Below, in pieces: positions 1 through 9,733 of a stretch of 9,733 nt of DNA. The position numbers and the translations under genes are program-made. Position 1 is the stretch's first letter. Each line of letters starts with the position of its first letter. This stretch comes from Candidatus Helarchaeota ASGARD archaeon Hel_GB_B. GTDB taxonomy: Archaea > Asgardarchaeota > Lokiarchaeia > Helarchaeales > HEL-GB-B. The DNA lies in assembly GCA_005191425.1 (NCBI GenBank), contig SUPR01000115.1, positions 1 to 9,733 of the forward strand, read 5' to 3'. The notes beneath the pieces were generated by a model, which was not told the origin of the DNA, searched no databases, and saw only the letters and a list, made by a program, of their open reading frames with translations.

Positions 1-381
1 ATTATACGTCCTCCCAAATAACGATTTCTGCACATCATTACACCTACATGTCTGATATCTTGATATGTATTCGTCGTGTAATTTCTTTACAAGTTCGTAT
101 GATTTGAATGGCTTAAATATGTCTTTAAAATCTTTTTTCTCACGTCCAAAAATGAAACTTATCGCTAACGCTCCCCCAATGAGTGCCCCACAACTCCCAT
201 CAGTTGTTAAACCCAGACCATCTGCTAACCCACTAGCTGCTTTAAATACATCCTCACTCCAAATTCCAAGGGCTTCAAAAATAGCTGCTAATGAAGTCTG
301 GGCACATCCTGTACACTTTTGCTCATAAGATTTCCCTAATTCATATGCTTTATTCAAAATCGCCTCTAATGATTCATCCAT
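1..381 (-). CDS. C_GCAxxG_C_C family putative redox-active protein (3' end runs off the window)
   Basis: Not in the ORF track; translated by hand from ATG at 381: MDESLEAILNKAYELGKSYEQKCTGCAQTSLAAIFEALGIWSEDVFKAASGLADGLGLTTDGSCGALIGGALAISF...YQTCRCNDVQKSLFGRTYN. It is open for 127 codons to the window edge. The GCAQ, CGALIGG and CxC motifs are the family signature. GTGAG RBS-like motif at 386-390, 4 nt upstream. Confidence 0.88.
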   Translation of the reverse strand, partial: MDESLEAILNKAYELGKSYEQKCTGCAQTSLAAIFEALGIWSEDVFKAASGLADGLGLTTDGSCGALIGGALAISFIFGREKKDFKDIFKPFKSYELVKKLHDEYISRYQTCRCNDVQKSLFGRTYN

Positions 382-537
382 ATATCTCACTATTATTTTT
401 TAATTAAGAATTTTGATTCTCTTATGCATAATTGTTAATTGCGTTATTCTCATTTAATACCATCAAAAATTATCAAAATTAAACCTTTATTTTCATCTAA
501 ATTTCATAAATTAATGGTAACTTTACATATATTAATT

Positions 538-571
538 TAATCCAATAAAAATAGTAATCCAATAAAAATAG
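538..571. repeat. Perfect tandem duplication of a 17-mer, (TAATCCAATAAAAATAG)x2
   Basis: Read directly: 538-554 and 555-571 are identical. Confidence 0.9.
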
Positions 572-670
572 GAAAGTAGCCATTCTGAAAAAATTCTGCC
601 TTGTAAATATTAATTTATTGGTATCCTAATTTTTAAAATTTTAAATATTAAAACAAAATCTCAAAAAATC

Positions 671-700
671 CCATAATTTATCCGAGAATTCCATAATTAA
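671..700. repeat. Direct repeat CCATAATT(T/A)A with 20-nt period
   Basis: CCATAATTTA at 671-680 and CCATAATTAA at 691-700, separated by TCCGAGAATT. The repeat is real; a function is unproven. Confidence 0.55.
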
Positions 701-1239
701 ATAAAAAAATAATTCAAAGTAATAAAAAATAGAAGTCCACTTGGAAAATTTAATTTTAAAAAACTCTTTAAAACTGTAAATTATAATAGTTATCTGTATT
801 TGGGGCGATAAAAATAAGTTATAAATCTATTTCTATGCAGTTAAAAATATTTTATGTATACAAATATACTTTATTATTAATTATTTTACCAATAACAGGT
901 CTGATATCTTTAAATTTTAGGTTAAATTTATTTCTATTTACTAATTTTATTGATTAGATTTATAATTTTGGTACTTCGATTGAATTTATTTCATTATCAA
1001 TTTATTTTCTGATACTTTTTCTTTTTAACTTTTACTTTTAATTTACAGACTAATGGTATTATTGAGTTAATGCCCTTTCTATCGTCTTCGTTCCCTTAAT
1101 TGTACAATATTTGTTAAATATGCTTTAAATAAAATAATCTTAATCATACAAATTTCTGATAATTAACTTTATTAAATTAGTTAGGTTTAAGAATGATTTT
1201 TTGGAATTAGAGCTTGATAAACGTAGCTATATTAATTAA

Positions 1240-1247
1240 TTTTAATA
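1240..1247 (+). promoter_or_regulatory. Putative archaeal TATA box of the Ubl operon
   Basis: TTTTAATA ending 23 nt before ATG 1271. Such motifs are common in AT-rich DNA, and other candidates exist (e.g. TTTATTAAA near 1168-1176). Confidence 0.3.
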
Positions 1248-1255
1248 CGCCTTAT

Positions 1256-1262
1256 GGAAGGT
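1256..1262 (+). promoter_or_regulatory. Shine-Dalgarno-like site for the Ubl gene
   Basis: GGAAGGT 8 nt upstream of ATG 1271. This supports 1271 over the TTG at 1214 used by the ORF track. Confidence 0.55.
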
Positions 1263-1270
1263 TCTTAAAA

Positions 1271-1582
1271 ATGAAAAAGACTATATTAAAGGTTAGATTT
1301 GCACTTTCCAATGAACCAATATTTATTGATGTAGATAATAAAAGTCAGCCAATTAAAGAAATTTTATTGAATGCTGTGGACAAGTTAGAAGTATTGGGAC
1401 TAACTCATGAAGCAATTCAATTATCAAATGTTTTAGAGGACCATAATATTTACATTCAGGGTAGTCAAATTAACCCGGAAACAATCTTAAACACATTACC
1501 TTTGGAAAACAAAGTAATAAATTCCGAAGAAATTGAATATGCGGAAGTGCAATTATTACGAGAACATAGGGGTGGAAATTAA
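1271..1582 (+). CDS. Ubiquitin-like (beta-grasp) modifier, 103 aa, pro-form ending ...LLREHRGG-N
   Basis: C-terminal RGG (GG at 1571-1576) followed by one residue (Asn) and the stop. Pattern: beta (ILKVRFA), beta (PIFIDVD), helix (PIKEILLNAVDKLE), then IYIQGSQINPETILNTL, which resembles ubiquitin LIFAGKQLEDGRTLSDY. It lies directly upstream of E2-, JAMM- and E1-like genes. Start re-called to ATG 1271. Confidence 0.82.
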   Translation: MKKTILKVRFALSNEPIFIDVDNKSQPIKEILLNAVDKLEVLGLTHEAIQLSNVLEDHNIYIQGSQINPETILNTLPLENKVINSEEIEYAEVQLLREHRGGN

Positions 1583-1609
1583 TAATACAAATTTTGAGTG
1601 AGTCTATAG

Positions 1610-2374
1610 ATGGAAATCTCATTAAAAGAGAAATTAATCAAATATCTTATTATAGACGGAGAATTTTCTTTCATAATAGGAAATGAGATTTATATTTCAA
1701 AACATATTCTACCTATAAAAAAATTTTTTTTGTCAGTTTTAGAACAAAAAGGGGAAGATAGCGGCAAATTTTTACTAGAAATTCTGACCAATCCAAACAT
1801 AGTTATTTTTGGCGGATCGGTCTATTATTTGGAAAAACTAATCAATGTTAAGACCGCTATTCAAAAATTAAAGAGCGAACTCACTAGAAATCTGGATATT
1901 ATTTTAAAAGAAAATAGCGCTTTAATCAATCTATTTAATATTCTAAGTATTAATGATATTATAGAACTCTCTGAAAATGGTATCTCATTCTATTTGTTAG
2001 ATGGGAAATTATACGCTATAAAATACCTCTCAGAATATGTCCAAAAATATAACAATAAAAAATGGAAATTCCCTGGTTGTACTCTTGGCATATATATTGA
2101 TAATCAGTTAAGATTAGGTAATGTCGTAGTATTAAAACCGAAAAACTATATTCATCCATTTGTATATACAACTGGCCCTCCTTACAAAATATGTCTCGGG
2201 ACTTTTTATGATTCATGTGATGCAAAAAAGGTCAAGTCCTTAGCACTTGTGAATTCTTTAATAATGCTATTTATGACTGCGATTCAAATTTTAGTTTCAG
2301 GATATGATAGAAATGTTTCTCCTGCTAATGGTCATTTAACTGACGAAAAATATGATAAATATTTAATAAATTAA
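1610..2374 (+). CDS. Divergent E2/UBC-fold ubiquitin-conjugating-like protein with a ~150-aa N-terminal region of unknown type (254 aa)
   Basis: H182-P-F-V-YTTGPPYK-I-C195-L-G matches the E2 HPN(I/V)...G.ICL motif, with N->F and a 3-residue insertion. Downstream IQILVSGYDRNVSPAN resembles the Rad6/UBE2A IQSLLDEPNPNSPAN segment. Operon context agrees. Confidence 0.75.
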   Translation: MEISLKEKLIKYLIIDGEFSFIIGNEIYISKHILPIKKFFLSVLEQKGEDSGKFLLEILTNPNIVIFGGSVYYLEKLINVKTAIQKLKSELTRNLDIILKENSALINLFNILSINDIIELSENGISFYLLDGKLYAIKYLSEYVQKYNNKKWKFPGCTLGIYIDNQLRLGNVVVLKPKNYIHPFVYTTGPPYKICLGTFYDSCDAKKVKSLALVNSLIMLFMTAIQILVSGYDRNVSPANGHLTDEKYDKYLIN

Positions 2375-2391
2375 TGGACAAATGATATAAA

Positions 2392-3357
2392 ATGGTTAGA
2401 ATAATAAAATCACTGGACGATATATCATCAATTAAAATTAAAAGAGAACCTGATAATTGCCCTGTTGCATTGAAAAAAATAAAAATTACAGACAATGCGT
2501 TGAAAAAATTATTTTTAATGGCTAAAGCTGTTAATGAACATTTAGGGGGATATTACGAAGTATATTGCTTATTATTGGGCGAAGATGATATTATTGAAGA
2601 TATTTATATTCCAGAACAAGAAGCTGGTACTACAAGTGTGAATGTTTCTGAGGATAATTTAATAAAAATTATTAATAATATCGATTCATTAGAAATTACC
2701 AAAAAAATACTGGGCTGGGGGCATTCACATGGTAATTTTTCGGTATTTTCTTCATATACCGATGACCAAAATCATCTAACAATTCTTAACCAAACTTCCA
2801 ATTTCGTGAAAATTAATAATCAAGAAATTAAATTTGCCTATGGCTTAACTGTAAACGTTAAGAAAGAGATTTTTGGAATAGTTATTAGCCAATATACTTG
2901 TGGGGCTATTTTTCAAAGAAAAGGTAATTTCATTTATCTTCGAAACCAAGATAGTTTCGATGAGTTTAGTGAATATAATAATATTTTAGATATTGTTAAA
3001 AAACGAGTGAGAAAATATAATTGGGACCTTATACTTCCAAAAAGAAAAAAATTAATCGACTATTTGAATAATGAAAATGAATTAGACATTTTACATAAGG
3101 GCAACATTTCAATTAATGACCCTGTTTTTACTGATAATAAATCTACAAATTATGAAATCGTTTTTAAAAAGATTGACTTGTATACTTTACAAGATTTGCT
3201 CTCGTCAGATAGAATAACTGAGATGTTATTAAATTATAATCTATTTAAACAAATAGCTATCGAATTTGGTGAAGAAAAATTCAGAGTTTCTTTGTATTCG
3301 ATAATTAATGTGATTAGAAACCAGATAATGCATGAAATTATCGAGTTAAGTCAATAA
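2392..3357 (+). CDS. JAB1/MPN/Mov34 (JAMM, MPN+) metallo-isopeptidase with C-terminal extension (321 aa)
   Basis: Complete JAMM motif: E56 (YEVYCLLLG) and GWG-H111-S-H113-x7-S121-x2-D124. The IEDIYIPEQEAGTTSVNV segment resembles Rpn11 VVDVFAMPQSGTGVSVEA. Confidence 0.93.
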   Translation: MVRIIKSLDDISSIKIKREPDNCPVALKKIKITDNALKKLFLMAKAVNEHLGGYYEVYCLLLGEDDIIEDIYIPEQEAGTTSVNVSEDNLIKIINNIDSLEITKKILGWGHSHGNFSVFSSYTDDQNHLTILNQTSNFVKINNQEIKFAYGLTVNVKKEIFGIVISQYTCGAIFQRKGNFIYLRNQDSFDEFSEYNNILDIVKKRVRKYNWDLILPKRKKLIDYLNNENELDILHKGNISINDPVFTDNKSTNYEIVFKKIDLYTLQDLLSSDRITEMLLNYNLFKQIAIEFGEEKFRVSLYSIINVIRNQIMHEIIELSQ

Positions 3358-3385
3358 ATTATATAAAATTAATTGGGGTATTTAA

Positions 3386-4276
3386 ATGTCACAAAGTTTA
3401 AGATATGATAGACAAAATCAGATTAAAAAATGGGAACAAAAAAGGTTATTAATTTCAAAAGTATCTGTTATAGGTGCTGGCGCTTTAGGCAATTATGTTT
3501 GTGCTGGGTTAATTGGACTTGGCATCGGAAATATCGAAATTTACGATTTTGATGAAATCGAAATTCATAACCTAAACAGGCAATCAATGTTTACAGAAGA
3601 AGATATTGGTTTTAATAAAGCTGAAATTTTAACAAAGAGATTACAAGAAAGAAATTCAGAGATAAATATACAGGGTTATTCCGAAAAAATCACTGAGAAA
3701 AATATAGCGACCTTATTAAATGATACTGACTTGATAATTGATGCAGTAGATAATATAGAAACTAGAGCTGTTTTGTCAAGATTTTCTCTTATTAAAAATA
3801 TCCCCTTGGTTCACGGTGCTACATCTGCAGATGGTGGACAAATTGCGGTTATAACAAGAGAAACTCCTTGTTTAGAATGCTTTATGAATACCAATAGAAA
3901 AAACAGTTCACAATCGTGTACCGACAATCCTAATCCAAGTGTGGTTTATACAACACAAGTAATTTCCGGACTAATGGTCGAAAATACAAGAATTATACTT
4001 TTACCCCTAAATAAGTTAGAAAAACCAACTCCTCCACTTTTGTATTATGATCTTCTTTCTCCAAATAGGTTTTATCATGTGAATATACAACGTAAGAAAG
4101 ATTGCATTTGCAACGAAATCCTCAAAAACGCTAAATTAGAAAAACCTACTCTGGAAAAAATTAAGGTCGATCTTGATAATAGAGTAATAAACACTGTCGA
4201 AAAAATTGATACTAATAAAAATAACATCTCTAATAAAAAACGTACTCGAAAATTTACATTAAGTGATTTTATATAA
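3386..4276 (+). CDS. ThiF/MoeB/HesA-family E1-like Ubl-activating enzyme with C-terminal tail (296 aa)
   Basis: RYDRQ, G30-AGALG nucleotide loop, DFDEIEIHNLNRQ, DAVDN..TR, C162xxC165, putative catalytic C178 (SQSCT, codon 3917-3919) and C240-x-C242. Confidence 0.95.
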   Translation: MSQSLRYDRQNQIKKWEQKRLLISKVSVIGAGALGNYVCAGLIGLGIGNIEIYDFDEIEIHNLNRQSMFTEEDIGFNKAEILTKRLQERNSEINIQGYSEKITEKNIATLLNDTDLIIDAVDNIETRAVLSRFSLIKNIPLVHGATSADGGQIAVITRETPCLECFMNTNRKNSSQSCTDNPNPSVVYTTQVISGLMVENTRIILLPLNKLEKPTPPLLYYDLLSPNRFYHVNIQRKKDCICNEILKNAKLEKPTLEKIKVDLDNRVINTVEKIDTNKNNISNKKRTRKFTLSDFI

Positions 4277-4300
4277 TTTAAAAAATGATGAAAATGAATT

Positions 4301-4732
4301 ATGATGTCTGATGATGAATTATTAGCAAAATTTTTAGCTGAAAATAAAAAAGTTGGAGTGAAAAATAAATCAGAAAAACCTAAATTGATAAAAAATCGTG
4401 AAAAATTAAATAATAAACCTGACTTTTTTCTCCAAAAATTTTTAGACTTACAGGAAGACTCAGTTTTACCTCCAACTTTGTTTTTTACTCTGATAGAATT
4501 ATTTAATTTTGTTAATATACTTCTTGAAAAAATGGACAATAAAAACAGACCAAAGTTAAAAGAATTAATTAGATGGTCCCAATATGCAATTTATGACCAA
4601 GATCTTCAGCAATTAATTGATTATATATCTGAAATTAAGGAAACAAATAATATAAAAAAGGAGACCATTTTATATTCTGTGTTAGATGTTATGACCGCTT
4701 TATCTAAATTCTATTTAAAAGGAGCTGTCTGA
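4301..4732 (+). CDS. Hypothetical protein (143 aa), basic low-complexity N-terminus and predicted helical C-terminal domain
   Basis: Open frame that fills the gap between E1 and the TPR gene with 24- and 19-nt spacers. No recognisable motif. Confidence 0.75.
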   Translation: MMSDDELLAKFLAENKKVGVKNKSEKPKLIKNREKLNNKPDFFLQKFLDLQEDSVLPPTLFFTLIELFNFVNILLEKMDNKNRPKLKELIRWSQYAIYDQDLQQLIDYISEIKETNNIKKETILYSVLDVMTALSKFYLKGAV

Positions 4733-4751
4733 AATAAATAATCTTAAATCA

Positions 4752-7667
4752 GTGGACAAGTCTGTTAAAGAATTTCCCCTGATTTCAATTAAAAATAGTC
4801 TATTTATTTTGAAACCAAGTAATATTGAATTAAAACATATTATTGATGAATTGAGCGAAAATAATGTAAATAACAGCATTAATAAAATATTAAATGAATT
4901 TCAAAATAAAATTCTTTATAACGGAAAATTCTGGGAATTAGAATACGCAGGCAATCCTTATAAATTCATTGATAACATAAAATCATTCTATTTAAGTAAT
5001 CTTGAAGAAAAGTTCAATTCTATTAATCAATTAATTGCTTTTTTTTCGTCTAATTTGAAGAACATCGAGTTAATGTCTCTTCATAAATTAGGGTTTGTTA
5101 TAATTGACCATATTTTATATATAATTAAAAAAATAATTGATATAAATAAATTGGGCAAAAATAAAATTTTATTGGACGAACCTACTTCTTTTGTAGGAGT
5201 AGAAATTCTTGGAAAAAATAAATTGGGTGATTTAGTATTTCTTGACTCTAAAAACCAATTTAAACCCATTTTTTCTATTAGCTCTTCGAATTTACAATGC
5301 TCTGAAAATGATGATAATATTGATTTTATCATTAGAATTAATAATAGATTAGAAAATGCTACAAAAATTCTAAAAATACTTAGTGAAAAAAATTTCGAGT
5401 CCATTGAAAATAAAATTCTCTATATTGAATCTTGTCTACAGAAAATTGAAAAAAATCCCTCCATGATCACAATTAAAAAAATATTAATACTCGAAGAAGC
5501 ATACGATTTAGCTTATGATACTAAATATTATGATATTATCTATAAAGAACTTCTTAATAATTATTCTTTATTTATTAAAGAGCTACTATCATTAGGTGAA
5601 ATATCCAGATTTTCTCAATTTATTAATAAAATAACAACAAAATATGCTAATACAGTTATGGAACCAATTGTTGATATTGTTATTGAATTTGTAGACTCTA
5701 TTCGTGATATAAATACTGGAATAGATTTCTTAATTAAAATCTTCAATCTCGGTTCTAATACCCAAAAAGCCCTGATAAAAGAAACGATTGCTCAAAAATG
5801 TCATACCCTCCATTCATATTTAATTTCGAAACTTGATTTTTCTAGTATTTCTAATTTGCAACTTAAAATTTCAGAATGTCTATCTTTATCTGAGCAACTA
5901 AATGTTTTATTTGACCTTGCTCATTTAATTTTATCCTCGAAGAAAAATATAAGTCTCGATAATTATATCAATTTACTTGAACTTTATTTAGAAATCGCAA
6001 ATAGTTATAATAATAAATTACCTGTTGATCTAGAACTAAAATTCTACGGGATATACTCTGAAATTAAAGATGAATTATATAATATTTATATTTTAAAAAT
6101 TAAATCTTTAATTGATTCAATAATAAATGATTTACAACTAGATTTTGAGCAAATGGACCAAATTATCCTAAAAGTTCATTCAAATTATACTGATTATTCA
6201 GAATTTGACCGGGTATTGGCGAGATATTTTTATAATACTCTTGAATACATTAAAAATTCTCCAAATATGATATATGATACTTTTATTAAAATCGGAAACT
6301 ATGGAATTGCTATCTGTAAAGGGATATACCGAAAAAAAATAGAATCCCTTATCAAGAGAGAAGTAATTTTCCAATCTTTTTATTCTGAAGGAGTTAAAAA
6401 TCTGAAATTGAAAAATTATGATGTTGCATTAGAAAATCTACGTAGTGCAGCGATAATAAAGCCTAAATATTTCAGAATCTGGTTTTTTATTGGACAGGTA
6501 TATTTCAATCTAAAACTTCATGATAAAGCTAAAAATGCCTTGAAATTGGCTTATAAATATGCTGAATTTGGGGATTATTTTGGGTTATATCAACTTAGTT
6601 TAGTCCTTGAAAATTTAAATGAATATAAATATTCTCTCAACATTATTTACAGGTTATTAAAATCAAATCGCAACGATCATGAGGTATATGACCTTTTAAC
6701 AAAAATAAGCTGGAAATTAAAAAATTATGCGTTAATGTTTTTTTCGATTCATTTAACTATTAAAAGTTTAATTCAAAATTATCAACAAAATCTTCTATTA
6801 TCCACCGATTTAGATACTTATTGGCAATATTCTTTTGGAATGATTAATGAATTTATTTCAAGTCAAATTTATGCTAATAATCGGACCAAAAGACCGACAA
6901 AAGGAATCAAAAAAATTATGGTCAATACTCTTCATAAAATTGGTTCGGAATTAATTATTGTTGAGGAATTTGATAAAATATTTGATGTATATAAAATATT
7001 GAAAAAATTTAAGTGTAAAATAAAAGGGAACTTATCGAATTATTTATTTAAGAAGTTTGAAAATCTTGGTGTTTCATTTCACAAAAGAAATCAATTTATA
7101 TCAGCTCTTAAATATTATAATGAACTCATATATCTTAACCCAAGTCATGTTAATTCATACATTAAGATAGGAATTTGCTATATTCATTTAGAAAAATACC
7201 GGGACGCTCTTATTATATTTAAATTTGCTAATAAGTTAGCCCCTAATAATATTCAAATTTTAAATAATCTTGCTATTTTATATTATAATAAAGGTTTATA
7301 TGAAAAATGTTATTCAATATTACAAAAAGTGCTGGAAATTGACCCTACATATTTCATTGTTTATTACAATTTATCATTAGTCTCAATTAAAAAGGGCGAT
7401 TTTAAAAATGCTATTATAGTATATCTTAAATATTTGCAATTACAATACAATGAGAATAAAAATGTAGATTTTATAATAGATTTACTTCAAAAATGTGTCC
7501 TTCAAAAACAATTTGATGAGGAATTATTTAACCAAATTTTAGAATTTTTCACATTTATTGATGATTATGATGGGGTTTATGATAAAAATAAGTTATTTAA
7601 TACATTAATAAATTCTAATATAGATTTGAAATTTAAGGTGCAATTAAAGAAATTAAAAGCATTGTAA
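4752..7667 (+). CDS. 971-aa protein: N-terminal paralogue of the E2-like protein (aa ~1-210), helical middle, two TPR clusters
   Basis: GTG start. TPR consensus repeats at aa ~544-660 (e.g. IWFFIGQVYFNLKLHDKAKNALKLA) and ~769-900 (e.g. ILNNLAILYYNKGLYEKCYSILQKVLEIDP). Manual alignment of aa 52-183 to aa 63-195 of ORF 1610-2374 gives 35 identities with three 1-residue gaps. Confidence 0.88.
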   Translation: MDKSVKEFPLISIKNSLFILKPSNIELKHIIDELSENNVNNSINKILNEFQNKILYNGKFWELEYAGNPYKFIDNIKSFYLSNLEEKFNSINQLIAFFSSNLKNIELMSLHKLGFVIIDHILYIIKKIIDINKLGKNKILLDEPTSFVGVEILGKNKLGDLVFLDSKNQFKPIFSISSSNLQCSENDDNIDFIIRINNRLENATKILKILSEKNFESIENKILYIESCLQKIEKNPSMITIKKILILEEAYDLAYDTKYYDIIYKELLNNYSLFIKELLSLGEISRFSQFINKITTKYANTVMEPIVDIVIEFVDSIRDINTGIDFLIKIFNLGSNTQKALIKETIAQKCHTLHSYLISKLDFSSISNLQLKISECLSLSEQLNVLFDLAHLILSSKKNISLDNYINLLELYLEIANSYNNKLPVDLELKFYGIYSEIKDELYNIYILKIKSLIDSIINDLQLDFEQMDQIILKVHSNYTDYSEFDRVLARYFYNTLEYIKNSPNMIYDTFIKIGNYGIAICKGIYRKKIESLIKREVIFQSFYSEGVKNLKLKNYDVALENLRSAAIIKPKYFRIWFFIGQVYFNLKLHDKAKNALKLAYKYAEFGDYFGLYQLSLVLENLNEYKYSLNIIYRLLKSNRNDHEVYDLLTKISWKLKNYALMFFSIHLTIKSLIQNYQQNLLLSTDLDTYWQYSFGMINEFISSQIYANNRTKRPTKGIKKIMVNTLHKIGSELIIVEEFDKIFDVYKILKKFKCKIKGNLSNYLFKKFENLGVSFHKRNQFISALKYYNELIYLNPSHVNSYIKIGICYIHLEKYRDALIIFKFANKLAPNNIQILNNLAILYYNKGLYEKCYSILQKVLEIDPTYFIVYYNLSLVSIKKGDFKNAIIVYLKYLQLQYNENKNVDFIIDLLQKCVLQKQFDEELFNQILEFFTFIDDYDGVYDKNKLFNTLINSNIDLKFKVQLKKLKAL

Positions 7668-7781
7668 ATTCATAGATAAGTTATTGTGATAAGATAATAT
7701 TATAATAAAATAACAAATTATTTAAGCAAACTCACATTTTAAAGCCAGCAAGAAATTAGGATTTCAATTGATACAGTTAAT

Positions 7782-9536
7782 TCAACTACCATTCATATCC
7801 AAATAATTTAAAGAAAATTCTCTTATTATTTTTTCAATTTCAGTTTTTGAGTTTATTATTTTATCAATAGTAGTGTAATTCTCGTCTTTATTATGTTTTA
7901 GTAGCAATATTCTATGGGTGCAATTTTTCAAGGCCTCTGCATTATGTGTAGCGATAATTATTGTGGTATTAAAGTCGGAATTAATTTTGACAAGAAAATT
8001 TGTAATTTTTCGGGTGATAATTGGTTCTAAATCTCCAAATGGTTCATCTAACAATAATATTTCCGGCTTAGACAATAATTGAAGTATTAATGCAATTCTG
8101 ACTTTCTCACCCCAAGATAGCTCTTTTGTTCTGCGTTCTAATATATCAATTTCTAGTTCAAACTCATTAAAGAGAGGTGTTATTATTTTTTCATAAGCTT
8201 CAAAAGAAGGTATTGGAAACAAATCTCTAATTAATCGGTGATCGAGCCCCAATTTTTCTAATTTAGCATTCACTTCGTATAATGGTAAATCACCCAATCT
8301 AGACATAATATCAACAATGTTTTCTTTAATTCCAAGTTTTTTTGCTTTTTTAATCGCATTATGTATTGCAGTTTCTCCTTTTAAACCCATTTTACTCAGA
8401 ATCAAATCTTTTACATTAGCATAATATTCTAAATCAAGTTCTTGATGCATCAAATTTATTTTATTTCTGACCTTCATAGCTATTTGGCTTAAATTATAAA
8501 TATTGACTAATTTATCTGAATGATAAAAGATTTTTCCATGTTTAATCATTTCTACTCCCGCAAGGATTCTTAACAACACAGTTTTTCCAATCCCAGAACG
8601 CCCTAAAATCCCTAAAATTTCTCCTTTGAATATTTCCAATTTGGGGATCTTAAGCGAGAAAATCTTTTTTATTTTTGGAGAATAATAGGTGTGATCAAGG
8701 TCTTCAATTGACATAATAACTTTTTTCTTAGAAAATGATGGTAATTTGATTGAAGGTATAAGGACTTGCGAAATTTTATTACTAAATCCTTCAGGTTTCA
8801 CAATATCTTTAATAATGCCATGTTCTAAAATTGCAATTCTATCACAAATAGATTCAAGGATAATTGGGATATGTGAAGTAATTATAACAGTAATTTCGTT
8901 TTCTTTTGCTATTTTTTTAATATATTTAATTGAAATATTCTTTAATTCTGTATCTGACATTGTTAATGGTTCGTCTAAAAGCAAGAGTTGGAGATTATGC
9001 CCTACAAGAGCTAATTGGCGTGCTAATACTAGCCGTTGTTTTTCACCGCCACTTAATATTCCTGAAAACCATTCGGCTTTTTGGTCCAATCCTACAATTT
9101 TTAGAAGATAGAGTGCCTTCTTTTTCATTTTATTGTATTCATCACTTTCCAAATCGGGCAGGTCAACAAGTTCAGACCCATAGGTAATAACATTTAATCT
9201 TCTCATAACATTATGCAATACCGAATCTGCCCATAACCCAAAATTCCGCTGTAAATGGATTGAAGAAATTGTCTTTAATTTATGGACATCTAATTTATTA
9301 GTTTTACCACCTGAAAAAAGGTTGATCCCGTTGATCCTTACTGTTCCTTCATTAAAGTTCTCTACACCACGTAGAATGCGTACTAATGTAGTCTTCCCAG
9401 CCCCCGACTTTCCGAATAGCCCAAAAAATTCCCCTTTTGCTATTTTTAAATTGATATTCTTTAAAGCAGTAATTATTTTTCCATTAGATAATTTATATTT
9501 TTTAGTTAAATTGCTAATCTCGATGAAATATTCCAT
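7782..9536 (-). CDS. Tandem (double) ABC-family ATPase resembling methyl-coenzyme M reductase system component A2 (AtwA), 584 aa
   Basis: Two NBDs. NBD1: GKSGAGKT, LSGGEKQR, LLLLDE, TSH. NBD2: GRSGIGKT, LSWGEKVR, LLLDE, ATH. IHLQRNFGLW, KQRLVLARQLA and MHQELDL resemble AtwA LQRTFALY, KQRVVLARQLA and LHQEYDL (recalled from memory). No TM segments and no permease gene in the window. Confidence 0.8.
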   Translation of the reverse strand: MEYFIEISNLTKKYKLSNGKIITALKNINLKIAKGEFFGLFGKSGAGKTTLVRILRGVENFNEGTVRINGINLFSGGKTNKLDVHKLKTISSIHLQRNFGLWADSVLHNVMRRLNVITYGSELVDLPDLESDEYNKMKKKALYLLKIVGLDQKAEWFSGILSGGEKQRLVLARQLALVGHNLQLLLLDEPLTMSDTELKNISIKYIKKIAKENEITVIITSHIPIILESICDRIAILEHGIIKDIVKPEGFSNKISQVLIPSIKLPSFSKKKVIMSIEDLDHTYYSPKIKKIFSLKIPKLEIFKGEILGILGRSGIGKTVLLRILAGVEMIKHGKIFYHSDKLVNIYNLSQIAMKVRNKINLMHQELDLEYYANVKDLILSKMGLKGETAIHNAIKKAKKLGIKENIVDIMSRLGDLPLYEVNAKLEKLGLDHRLIRDLFPIPSFEAYEKIITPLFNEFELEIDILERRTKELSWGEKVRIALILQLLSKPEILLLDEPFGDLEPIITRKITNFLVKINSDFNTTIIIATHNAEALKNCTHRILLLKHNKDENYTTIDKIINSKTEIEKIIREFSLNYLDMNGS

Positions 9537-9558
9537 ATTTAATTGAAATTTACTAAAT

Positions 9559-9567
9559 TATTTAAAA
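9559..9567 (-). promoter_or_regulatory. Putative TATA box for a leaderless AtwA-like transcript
   Basis: TTTTAAATA on the minus strand ends 22 nt before ATG 9536, and there is no SD motif upstream. This geometry fits archaeal leaderless mRNAs, but the background is AT-rich. Confidence 0.35.
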
Positions 9568-9733
9568 TTAATGAGTAAGATTATTTTTTTTTGTTAATTA
9601 TTCATTTTTCTGAATAATATCAATTTAATTGTATTCTGTTTTAGTAATTCACCTAAAATTTAAAATCATATAGTGGGTTTTAAAAAGAATATTTATACTA
9701 TTATATTCGCTCAAAAAAAAAATTCTACATGTA

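Follow-up and report, generated by a model that had tools for sequence, protein, structure and literature searches.

A probable pseudo-E2 domain fused to TPRs in an Asgard archaeal ubiquitin-like cassette

Can a ubiquitin-type cassette without a RING protein find its targets through a second copy of its own E2? This question is raised by a stretch of 9,733 nucleotides (hereafter, the window) from Candidatus Helarchaeota archaeon Hel_GB_B (contig SUPR01000115.1 of assembly GCA_005191425.1, positions 1 to 9,733). The window carries six consecutive genes on the plus strand, to which all its coordinates below refer. They encode a ubiquitin-like protein (Ubl), an E2-like enzyme (E2), a JAB protease, an E1, a small protein and a protein with tetratricopeptide repeats (TPRs). 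The last is a protein of 971 aa (4752..7667, GTG start) with TPR arrays in its C-terminal half, as indicated by matches to Pfam TPR families. A preliminary description of the window had proposed that the N-terminus of the TPR protein is a paralogue of the E2 and retains the Cys of the catalytic position. No other prokaryotes are as closely related to eukaryotes as the Asgard archaea, and the origin of target selection in ubiquitin-type systems is an open question. We analyzed this N-terminal domain, which is designated E2', together with its relatives.

Relationship between the E2 and the TPR-protein N-terminus

By BLASTP, residues 63-183 of the E2 were aligned with residues 52-172 of the TPR protein (33/122 identities, 27%, 2 gaps; E 0.062 as a single comparison). 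The register was that of the preliminary description. The Smith-Waterman score between the E2 and the TPR-protein N-terminus was 96, against a mean of 45-49 (standard deviation 8) for composition-matched shuffles, one of 4000 of which reached 96. Natural 260-aa pieces from elsewhere in the TPR protein scored up to 73 against the E2. Taken alone, these pairwise alignments are suggestive of homology.

A HMMER search with a five-sequence profile of the domain against 1.84 billion representatives did not reach the E2 family. Since a single profile was too weak for this link, profile-profile comparison was needed. In a first hhalign run with five E2 and three TPR-protein sequences, in which stand-alone homologues of the domain were not yet included, the probability was 19.5% (P 0.0012), again in the same register. 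With 17 E2 sequences and seven sequences of the N-terminal domain, the probability was 96.1% (P 2.9e-9), and the alignment covered residues 62-222 of the E2 (1793..2275; also delimited by a joint MAFFT alignment) and residues 51-211 of the TPR protein. Reversed profiles gave 0.0-0.1%, 40 column shuffles gave at most 0.4% (E at least 0.14), and the unrelated small-protein family gave 0.1-0.3%. Shuffling in blocks of 12 columns left a partial signal (best 59.8%), as would be expected of a true local homology. Furthermore, when a hidden Markov model (HMM) of the E2 was run over the open reading frames (ORFs) of 13 loci, the best matches other than E2s were two stand-alone E2' proteins (E 0.024 and 0.044).

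In the joint MAFFT alignment, G69 and L105 of the E2 correspond to G58 and L94 of the TPR protein. The latter two are invariant in the E2' copies; L105 is near-invariant in the 17 E2s, and G69 is present in most of them (5/5 of the closest). The two families have in common a [LV]Y-A-[IV]-[KR] strand and an L-G-[DN]-x-V motif, and a Trp is conserved in the E2s and the stand-alone E2' proteins. In the AlphaFold2 (AF2) model of the TPR protein, the secondary-structure elements up to residue 126 follow the order of those of the E2 at an offset of 10-12 residues. Agreement with the E2 in this order extends as far as the second meander strand; beyond it, the strands are ill-defined in this model, whose predicted local distance difference test (pLDDT) values are low.

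An I/L/K/N-rich composition might also make an unrelated alpha/beta domain resemble an E2 by chance. The pairwise E-value of only 0.06, the score of 73 reached by other parts of the TPR protein and the low-confidence three-dimensional model would fit this explanation. However, the profiles, which include sequences from less AT-biased genomes, give P 2.9e-9 with reversed and shuffled controls at background, the invariant G and L positions coincide, and the gene neighborhood ties the two families. Chance similarity, which is very unlikely, was thus rejected by the profiles; the preliminary description had itself warned of the composition bias and asked for the shuffles given above. The homology between the TPR-protein N-terminus and the E2 is demonstrated by these comparisons and can be regarded as established at the level of sequence. 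The paralogy that had been proposed was borne out by the hhalign result and its controls, and gene duplication giving rise to an E2-derived domain, here fused to TPRs, is supported. The GTG start at 4752 is also supported, since the alignment with the orthologues begins at residue 3 and the first internal Met does not come before residue 108.

The E2 itself (254 aa; 1610..2374) looks active, judging from its fold model and its invariant His and Cys. No Pfam match was found for it, including UQ_con, and the E2-family profile detected nothing relevant among PDB sequences (E at least 0.9). Its AF2 model, based on the 17-sequence alignment, has a mean pLDDT of 80. In a Foldseek search of the PDB with this model, the top matches were nearly all E2s, with weak E-values (0.02-0.17). 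By VIA-align, residues ~101-253 were superimposed on the whole core of E2 chains (125-130 of ~150 residues, Z 7.0-8.4), and Z was at least 5 for 294 chains. Y180, H182, F184, C195 and G197 are invariant in the 17 sequences; H182 and F184 belong to the HPF motif (residues 182-184; 2153-2161), and C195 is the catalytic Cys (2192-2194). On the evidence of the model, the E2 is a diverged UBC enzyme with the UBC fold at residues 101-253 and HPF in place of HPN. Residues 1-100 form an N-terminal extension, which is modelled as a hairpin, two helices, a hairpin and a long helix. The closest named homologue is labelled 'Candidatus Lokiarchaeota archaeon'.

At another locus (L033, G133:C136), there are two tandem E2-like copies (2992-3762 and 3852-4655), in both of which the His and the catalytic Cys are kept; two JAB-like ORFs (4767-5720 and 5647-6987) follow them. 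Thus, duplication of the E2 inside the cassette occurred more than once.

Residues kept and lost in the E2' domain

The E2' domain comprises residues 1-212 of the TPR protein (4752..5387), as delimited by hhalign and by the stand-alone proteins, which end at the equivalent of residue ~212. By alignment with the E2, it covers the latter half of the N-terminal extension, the equivalents of UBC helix 1, of the helices that follow it and of the beta-meander, and one further helix, which is the counterpart of the long helix 213-230 of the E2. Across the 12 sequences of the E2' family, G58, L94, F98, Y123, G159, V162, L164 and D165 are invariant, and D160, N197 and T204 are near-invariant. The most conserved motif, L158-G-D-x-V-x-L-D165 (5223..5246), corresponds to L169-G-N-V-V-V-L-K of the E2, in the last strand before the HPF motif, which E2' has lost.

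The full-length stand-alone E2' proteins end ~15 residues past the equivalent of residue 197, in a conserved, strongly basic tail, R-I-N-R-R-R-R-F-D-T-K-I-I-A-A-F. The TPR-fused proteins have R-I-N-N-R-L-E-x-A-T-K-I-[IL] in its place. The basic tail is a possible binding site for nucleic acid or for an acidic partner.

C183 (codon at 5298..5300) had been taken for the retained catalytic Cys, and its conservation in homologues was to be checked. This residue is E in one TPR-fused orthologue (P0014) and D in another (P0015), and it is located inside a 12-residue insert that is missing from 9/9 stand-alone E2' sequences. In both the hhalign and the joint MAFFT alignments, the segment K193-F199 of the E2, which includes C195, faces a gap in every E2' member. 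C183 is neither conserved nor homologous to C195 of the E2, and it was rejected as the catalytic residue. No Cys is conserved across the 12 E2' sequences, and the conserved catalytic Cys that lies ~8-12 residues past an HPN-like motif in active E2s is absent from the domain.

The counterpart of H182 is K171 by hhalign, as had been proposed, and P172 by MAFFT in the TPR-fused proteins; in the stand-alones it is E, R or Q. The proposed retention of P183 as P172 holds for the three TPR-fused proteins and fails in the stand-alones. It had also been noted that the SPAN segment is not evident, and indeed E2' lacks the C-terminal helices of the E2, with their SPANGH motif and the invariant QIL...GY...P(AN) motif. 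Neither the Pfam UEV model (PF05743) nor UQ_con (PF00179) matched the 971-aa protein at E <=0.1, only TPR-type families being found. E2' has the feature by which ubiquitin E2 variants (UEVs) and pseudo-E2s are recognized, namely a UBC-derived domain without a catalytic Cys. These alignments demonstrate the loss of the catalytic residues, and E2' is most likely a catalytically dead paralogue of the operon's E2.

Three options had been offered for the domain: a thioester-accepting E3 equivalent, an active E2/E3 hybrid, or an inactive partner of the UEV type. In the first two, C195 of the E2 would hand Ubl over to either C183 or C228 of the TPR protein, which would then pass it to the substrate. 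C183 lies ~11-12 residues past K171-P172, the remnant of HPF, which is near the spacing of the E2. C228 (codon at 5433..5435, in the motif E-S-C-L-Q-K-I) is located in the helical region just past the shared domain and is invariant in the three TPR-fused proteins. However, both options rest on C183, with its E/D replacements in orthologues and its clade-specific insert following the gap that replaces the Cys loop of the E2, and they are disfavoured. The stand-alone members have no equivalent Cys and lack the region of C228, and the TPR-fused sequences are 53-54% identical, so the invariance of C228 carries little weight. An acceptor Cys conserved across the family, as expected of a HECT, RBR or RCR enzyme, was not found among the E2' sequences, C228 being kept in three close orthologues only. 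Transfer through a Cys of the TPR protein is hardly credible.

The rest of the protein (residues ~213-971, ~760 residues; 5388..7667) consists of a helical linker and two TPR arrays according to Pfam and the helix model. Pfam TPR_2, TPR_8, TPR_19, TPR_1 and ANAPC3 matches were located at residues 552-900, and the helices at residues 218-318 have pLDDT values of 70-87. This part is presumed to be a target-binding or sensor arm. Since the E2' domain also stands alone in the same cassette, the TPR fusion is a lineage-specific addition and not the core of the function.

Predicted pairing with the E2 and possible roles

The preliminary description had suggested a multimer prediction of the E2 with E2'. 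We predicted a complex of three chains, namely the E2, the small protein and residues 1-215 of the TPR protein, the last being scored as the partner; each chain had the alignment of its own family. The interaction prediction score from aligned errors (ipSAE) of the E2' partner was 0.68, 0.57 and 0.65 in three runs (median 0.65), and the best of three controls was 0.00. When the E2 was replaced, the score was 0.00. Thus, the predicted binding depends on the E2. In the calibration of the tool, the mark was reached by 58/80 solved complexes and by 2/110 mismatched pairs. Between runs, at least 64% of contacts recur, and the partner has a pLDDT of at least 64. For the small protein, the three-chain prediction showed no confident contacts with E2', which is not evidence against binding.

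All of the confident contacts are between residues 6-176 of the E2 and residues 7-170 of E2'. Equivalent elements are paired in antiparallel fashion (E2 20-22 with E2' 12-10; E2 64-67 with E2' 55-56), and in both directions the beta1-beta2 region of one chain lies against the helices of its partner. UBC helix 1 of the E2 (residues 102-122) is covered in the predicted interface. The prediction gives support, not proof, for a heterodimer of the E2 and E2' with pseudo-two-fold symmetry. Such pseudo-symmetry is as expected of paralogues descended from an E2 homodimer.

Based on these results, we favour the third option. E2' would be a UEV-like pseudo-E2 that pairs with the E2 and, in the TPR-fused form found here, a RING-less, non-catalytic, E3-like substrate receptor; we give this reading a probability of about 0.6. 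It fits all the data and the predicted heterodimer. In the proposed pathway, the JAMM protease would trim the Ubl precursor, the E1 would activate Ubl and the E2 would carry it on C195. The dead copy would pair with the E2 via the surfaces common to both paralogues, forming the pseudo-two-fold heterodimer. With the helical/TPR arm attached to the dead copy, the heterodimer would hold E2~Ubl beside a TPR-bound target. In relatives with the stand-alone domain, E2' would be a plain E2 cofactor.

Several points weigh against this reading. The AF2 model of residues 1-320 is poor (mean pLDDT 59, with residues 72-171 below 50); it was too uncertain for a superposition on the E2 or on UBC structures or for a fold search. 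The E2' family is small (12 sequences, four clusters at 50% identity). There is also a small chance that C228 is a clade-specific catalytic Cys. The complex prediction, made from our own shallow alignments and with three chains, is outside the calibration of the tool. In addition, the pseudo-homodimer arrangement may be a default outcome when the chains are homologous.

In the Ubc13-Mms2 pair, a Cys-less E2 variant is combined with an active E2 in chain building, and E2' may be a cofactor of this type. The dead copy would then bind an acceptor Ubl non-covalently, orient a lysine of it to E2~Ubl and set the chain type, the TPR arm only localising the complex. Cys-less E2 variants classically play this part beside an active E2, a heterodimer with the E2 is predicted here too, and the stand-alone forms without TPRs imply a core function independent of TPRs. 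However, the predicted interface is large and pseudo-symmetric and involves the N-terminal extensions, unlike the small asymmetric contact of the Mms2 type, and E2' lacks the C-terminal half of the UBC fold. An Mms2-like role is unlikely.

Helix 1 of canonical E2s makes contact with E1 and E3, and the predicted interface includes this helix of the E2. The dead copy might be a regulatory decoy or sensor, blocking the E1-binding or active face of the E2 until the TPR arm senses an invader or a stress protein. Such an arrangement would resemble the gated Ubl defence cassettes of bacteria (Bil, CBASS Cap2/Cap3), and the gene order Ubl, E2, JAB, E1 is that of BilABCD (10.1101/2023.09.26.559546). 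The distribution is also patchy and accessory-like: of 400 genomes from the phylum, 14 have the E2 and three have E2', and both are missing from a same-genus genome. In contrast, matches to defence models are limited to generic E1 models, and the neighboring genes are housekeeping-like (ABC ATPase, proteasome alpha subunit, HAD hydrolase), with no phage or defence-island context seen. A decoy or sensor is quite improbable.

The receptor reading can be extended to a more general and more tentative proposal. A TPR-fused pseudo-E2 could be a receptor independent of RING, HECT and RBR, which mimics the dimer partner of the E2 and presents targets to the E2 active site. In that case, Asgard archaea would have arrived at a means of selecting targets independently of the E3 families of eukaryotes; we regard this as possible, with the balance against it.

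The cassette, its distribution and known systems

The first gene of the cassette (1271..1582) encodes by translation a Ubl precursor of ~104 aa with a C-terminal RGG-N; homologues lie upstream of the E2 at loci L034 and L035. No family model matched it. The JAB/MPN (JAMM) protease gene (2392..3357) was identified from a Pfam JAB match below the gathering score (E 0.002), and its position is kept in all related cassettes. The E1 (296 aa; 3386..4276) is a small, single-domain enzyme of the ThiF/MoeB type (Pfam ThiF, E 1.4e-55, with NCBIfam and PADLOC E1 matches), whose one ThiF domain spans residues 8-240. The small helical protein (143 aa; 4301..4732) is always encoded between E1 and E2', as seen from the alignment of five homologues and from gene neighborhoods. 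Pfam matches in the cassette proteins are limited to JAB (weak), ThiF and the TPRs; no family was assigned by Pfam, NCBIfam or PADLOC to the E2, the small protein or the N-terminal 300 aa of the TPR protein.

The window is AT-rich (GC 22-32%). Upstream of the cassette, ~820 bases (391-1213) contain no ORF of at least 60 aa, and GC is at its lowest there (~22%); a long intergenic or promoter region is the probable explanation. Elsewhere in the genome (3.5 Mb, 94% complete), three canonical UQ_con E2 domains score above the Pfam cut-off (C128 58831-59121 and 61289-61639; C17 1459-1881), and the two on contig C128 are encoded ~2 kb apart. Since these canonical E2s are on other contigs, the cassette of the window is a second, separate and non-canonical Ubl system, which coexists with the canonical Asgard ubiquitin system.

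In the 14 genomes of the phylum that have the E2 family, the order is always E2, JAB, E1. The three genomes with E2' are that of the window (G000) and two with stand-alone genes, G308 and G397. In the latter two (loci L035 and L034, respectively), the E1 gene is followed by a gene for a small protein (~130 and ~92 aa, respectively) and then by one for an E2' protein (198 and 177 aa); these E2' proteins match the TPR-protein N-terminus (BLASTP 2e-6; HMM E 4e-4 and 8e-4). The stand-alone E2' proteins (L034 7148-7681, L035 5902-6498, and P0016-P0022) are 153-198 aa in size. The HMMER search of the 1.84 billion cluster representatives yielded only four clusters, of which two are TPR-fused and two are stand-alone; further stand-alone members came from a word-indexed search. 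When the N-terminal 300 aa of the TPR protein were searched against the 400 genomes, only the window itself was found; seven weak matches (E 3e-4 to 1e-2) were rejected as noise, being interrupted by stops or in unrelated frames. An ESM Atlas look-up of one stand-alone E2' gave no usable match.

The six-gene context is demonstrated by these loci. Every E2' member with enough flanking DNA is in the cassette, which is present in the window, L034, L035, L036 and the P0015 contig, and in part in L037 and L038. The typical sizes are ~105-110 aa for Ubl, ~254-265 for E2, ~330-360 for JAB, ~251-266 for E1 and ~131-143 for the small protein, which is followed by E2'. The flanking genes vary between loci. 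From this and the absence of E2 and E2' in the same-genus genome, the cassette is considered accessory and patchily distributed. The TPR fusion is limited to the AT-rich clade that contains the window. On the P0015 contig (Logan SRR7614767), a small LRR protein is encoded directly after the TPR gene, and genes for the beta and gamma subunits of methyl-coenzyme M reductase are ~7 kb away.

The small-protein family (window 4301-4732; L035 5499-5894; L036 4794-5198; L037 1836-2240; L034 7678-7956, minus strand) ranges from 92 to 143 aa; the 92-aa form of L034 is an ORF read from TTG and may be cut short. Its members carry the motif L-L-x-R-F-L-x-S-G-x-x-V-A-V-G-G-E at the N-terminus and a conserved helix at the C-terminus, and no database match was found for the family. 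At L036, the small gene overlaps the E2' gene by 4 nt. A larger sister group of E2-JAB-E1 cassettes carries after E1 a protein of another family, f5 (~257-326 aa; for example, L024 5747-6619, L025 4804-5784 and L032 5451-6317), which replaces the small protein and E2'. The f5 family was rejected as a relative of the E2 or E2' (hhalign 0.1%); thus, E2' is not universal among the cassettes of this E2 family. The f5 N-terminus, L-K-K-A-L-E-x-G-x-I-x-V-G, is weakly similar to the motif at the start of the small protein (hhalign P 0.006, 27 columns), and the likeness may reflect a shared docking peptide.

In this cassette, an E2 appears to have been duplicated in its own operon, with one copy stripped of the active site, kept as a partner and, in one lineage, fused to TPRs. 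A pseudo-E2 with a TPR arm is a plausible route to E3-like specificity without RING, HECT or RBR, and the cassette offers a small, testable system of six proteins. The significance is bounded by the great rarity of the family and by the fact that inactive E2-like domains are already known in eukaryotes and bacteria; the idea of a catalytic Cys in E2' has been refuted.

Among the bacterial examples are the polyUbl ('6e', now Bub) operons, which encode inactive E2-like/RWD-like UBC domains (Iyer et al. 2006, PMC1779556). Like the Asgard cassette, they are prokaryotic operons with Ubl, E1, a peptidase and a Cys-less UBC-like domain. The Cys-less E2 of Bub was later reported to act via oxyester intermediates (Ye et al. 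2024, PMC11601596). However, it is the sole E2 there, whereas here an active-looking Cys E2 stands beside the dead paralogue. Moreover, no conserved Ser/Thr can be defined at the catalytic position of E2', where the loop is deleted.

The cassette shares with BilABCD the order Ubl, E2, JAB, E1 and the lack of a RING E3. BilB, the E2 of that system, is a homodimer in the crystal, which has been proposed to matter for target recognition, and in its large E1, BilD, an inactive adenylation domain is fused to an active one and a CYS domain is inserted (10.1101/2023.09.26.559546). In contrast, the E1 of the cassette has a single ThiF domain in 296 aa and does not match the BilD-type architecture, the E2 is extended at its N-terminus, there are two additional conserved genes, and the system is archaeal. 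The Caldiarchaeum-type Ub-E1-E2-RING-Rpn11 operon (PMC5654768) is also archaeal and has a small E1, an E2, a JAMM protease and a Ubl precursor. It encodes a small RING E3 and a canonical UBC E2, whereas the Asgard cassette has no RING, and the accessory positions are filled by the pseudo-E2 (with or without TPRs) and the small helical protein. UBE2O and BIRC6 resemble the TPR protein in having a UBC-derived domain in a large protein with substrate-binding repeats, but their UBC domain is active and has the catalytic Cys that E2' lacks. In a literature search of limited coverage, we found no description of a prokaryotic conjugation operon in which genes for an active E2 and for a dead paralogue of it stand together, nor of this E2 family or the TPR fusion.

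The closest parallel is with the UEV proteins. Cys-less UBC domains occur in eukaryotes in Mms2, Uev1a and Tsg101. They have also been described in Asgard Vps23-like UEV proteins (PMC9192718). As in Mms2/Uev1a with Ubc13 and in Tsg101/Vps23, the E2' domain is derived from a UBC domain, has no catalytic Cys and can be fused to other modules; the predicted complex suggests that it too would be paired with an active E2 and act by binding rather than by catalysis. E2' differs from the UEVs in that it has lost the whole Cys loop and the C-terminal helices, not the Cys alone, in that its predicted heterodimer is large and pseudo-symmetric, and in that it is encoded inside the conjugation operon. Furthermore, its source is not the canonical UQ_con enzymes but a diverged E2 family that is restricted to Asgard archaea and has 100 additional aa at the N-terminus. 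The origin of E2' parallels that of the eukaryotic UEVs, having taken place independently and from a different E2 family.

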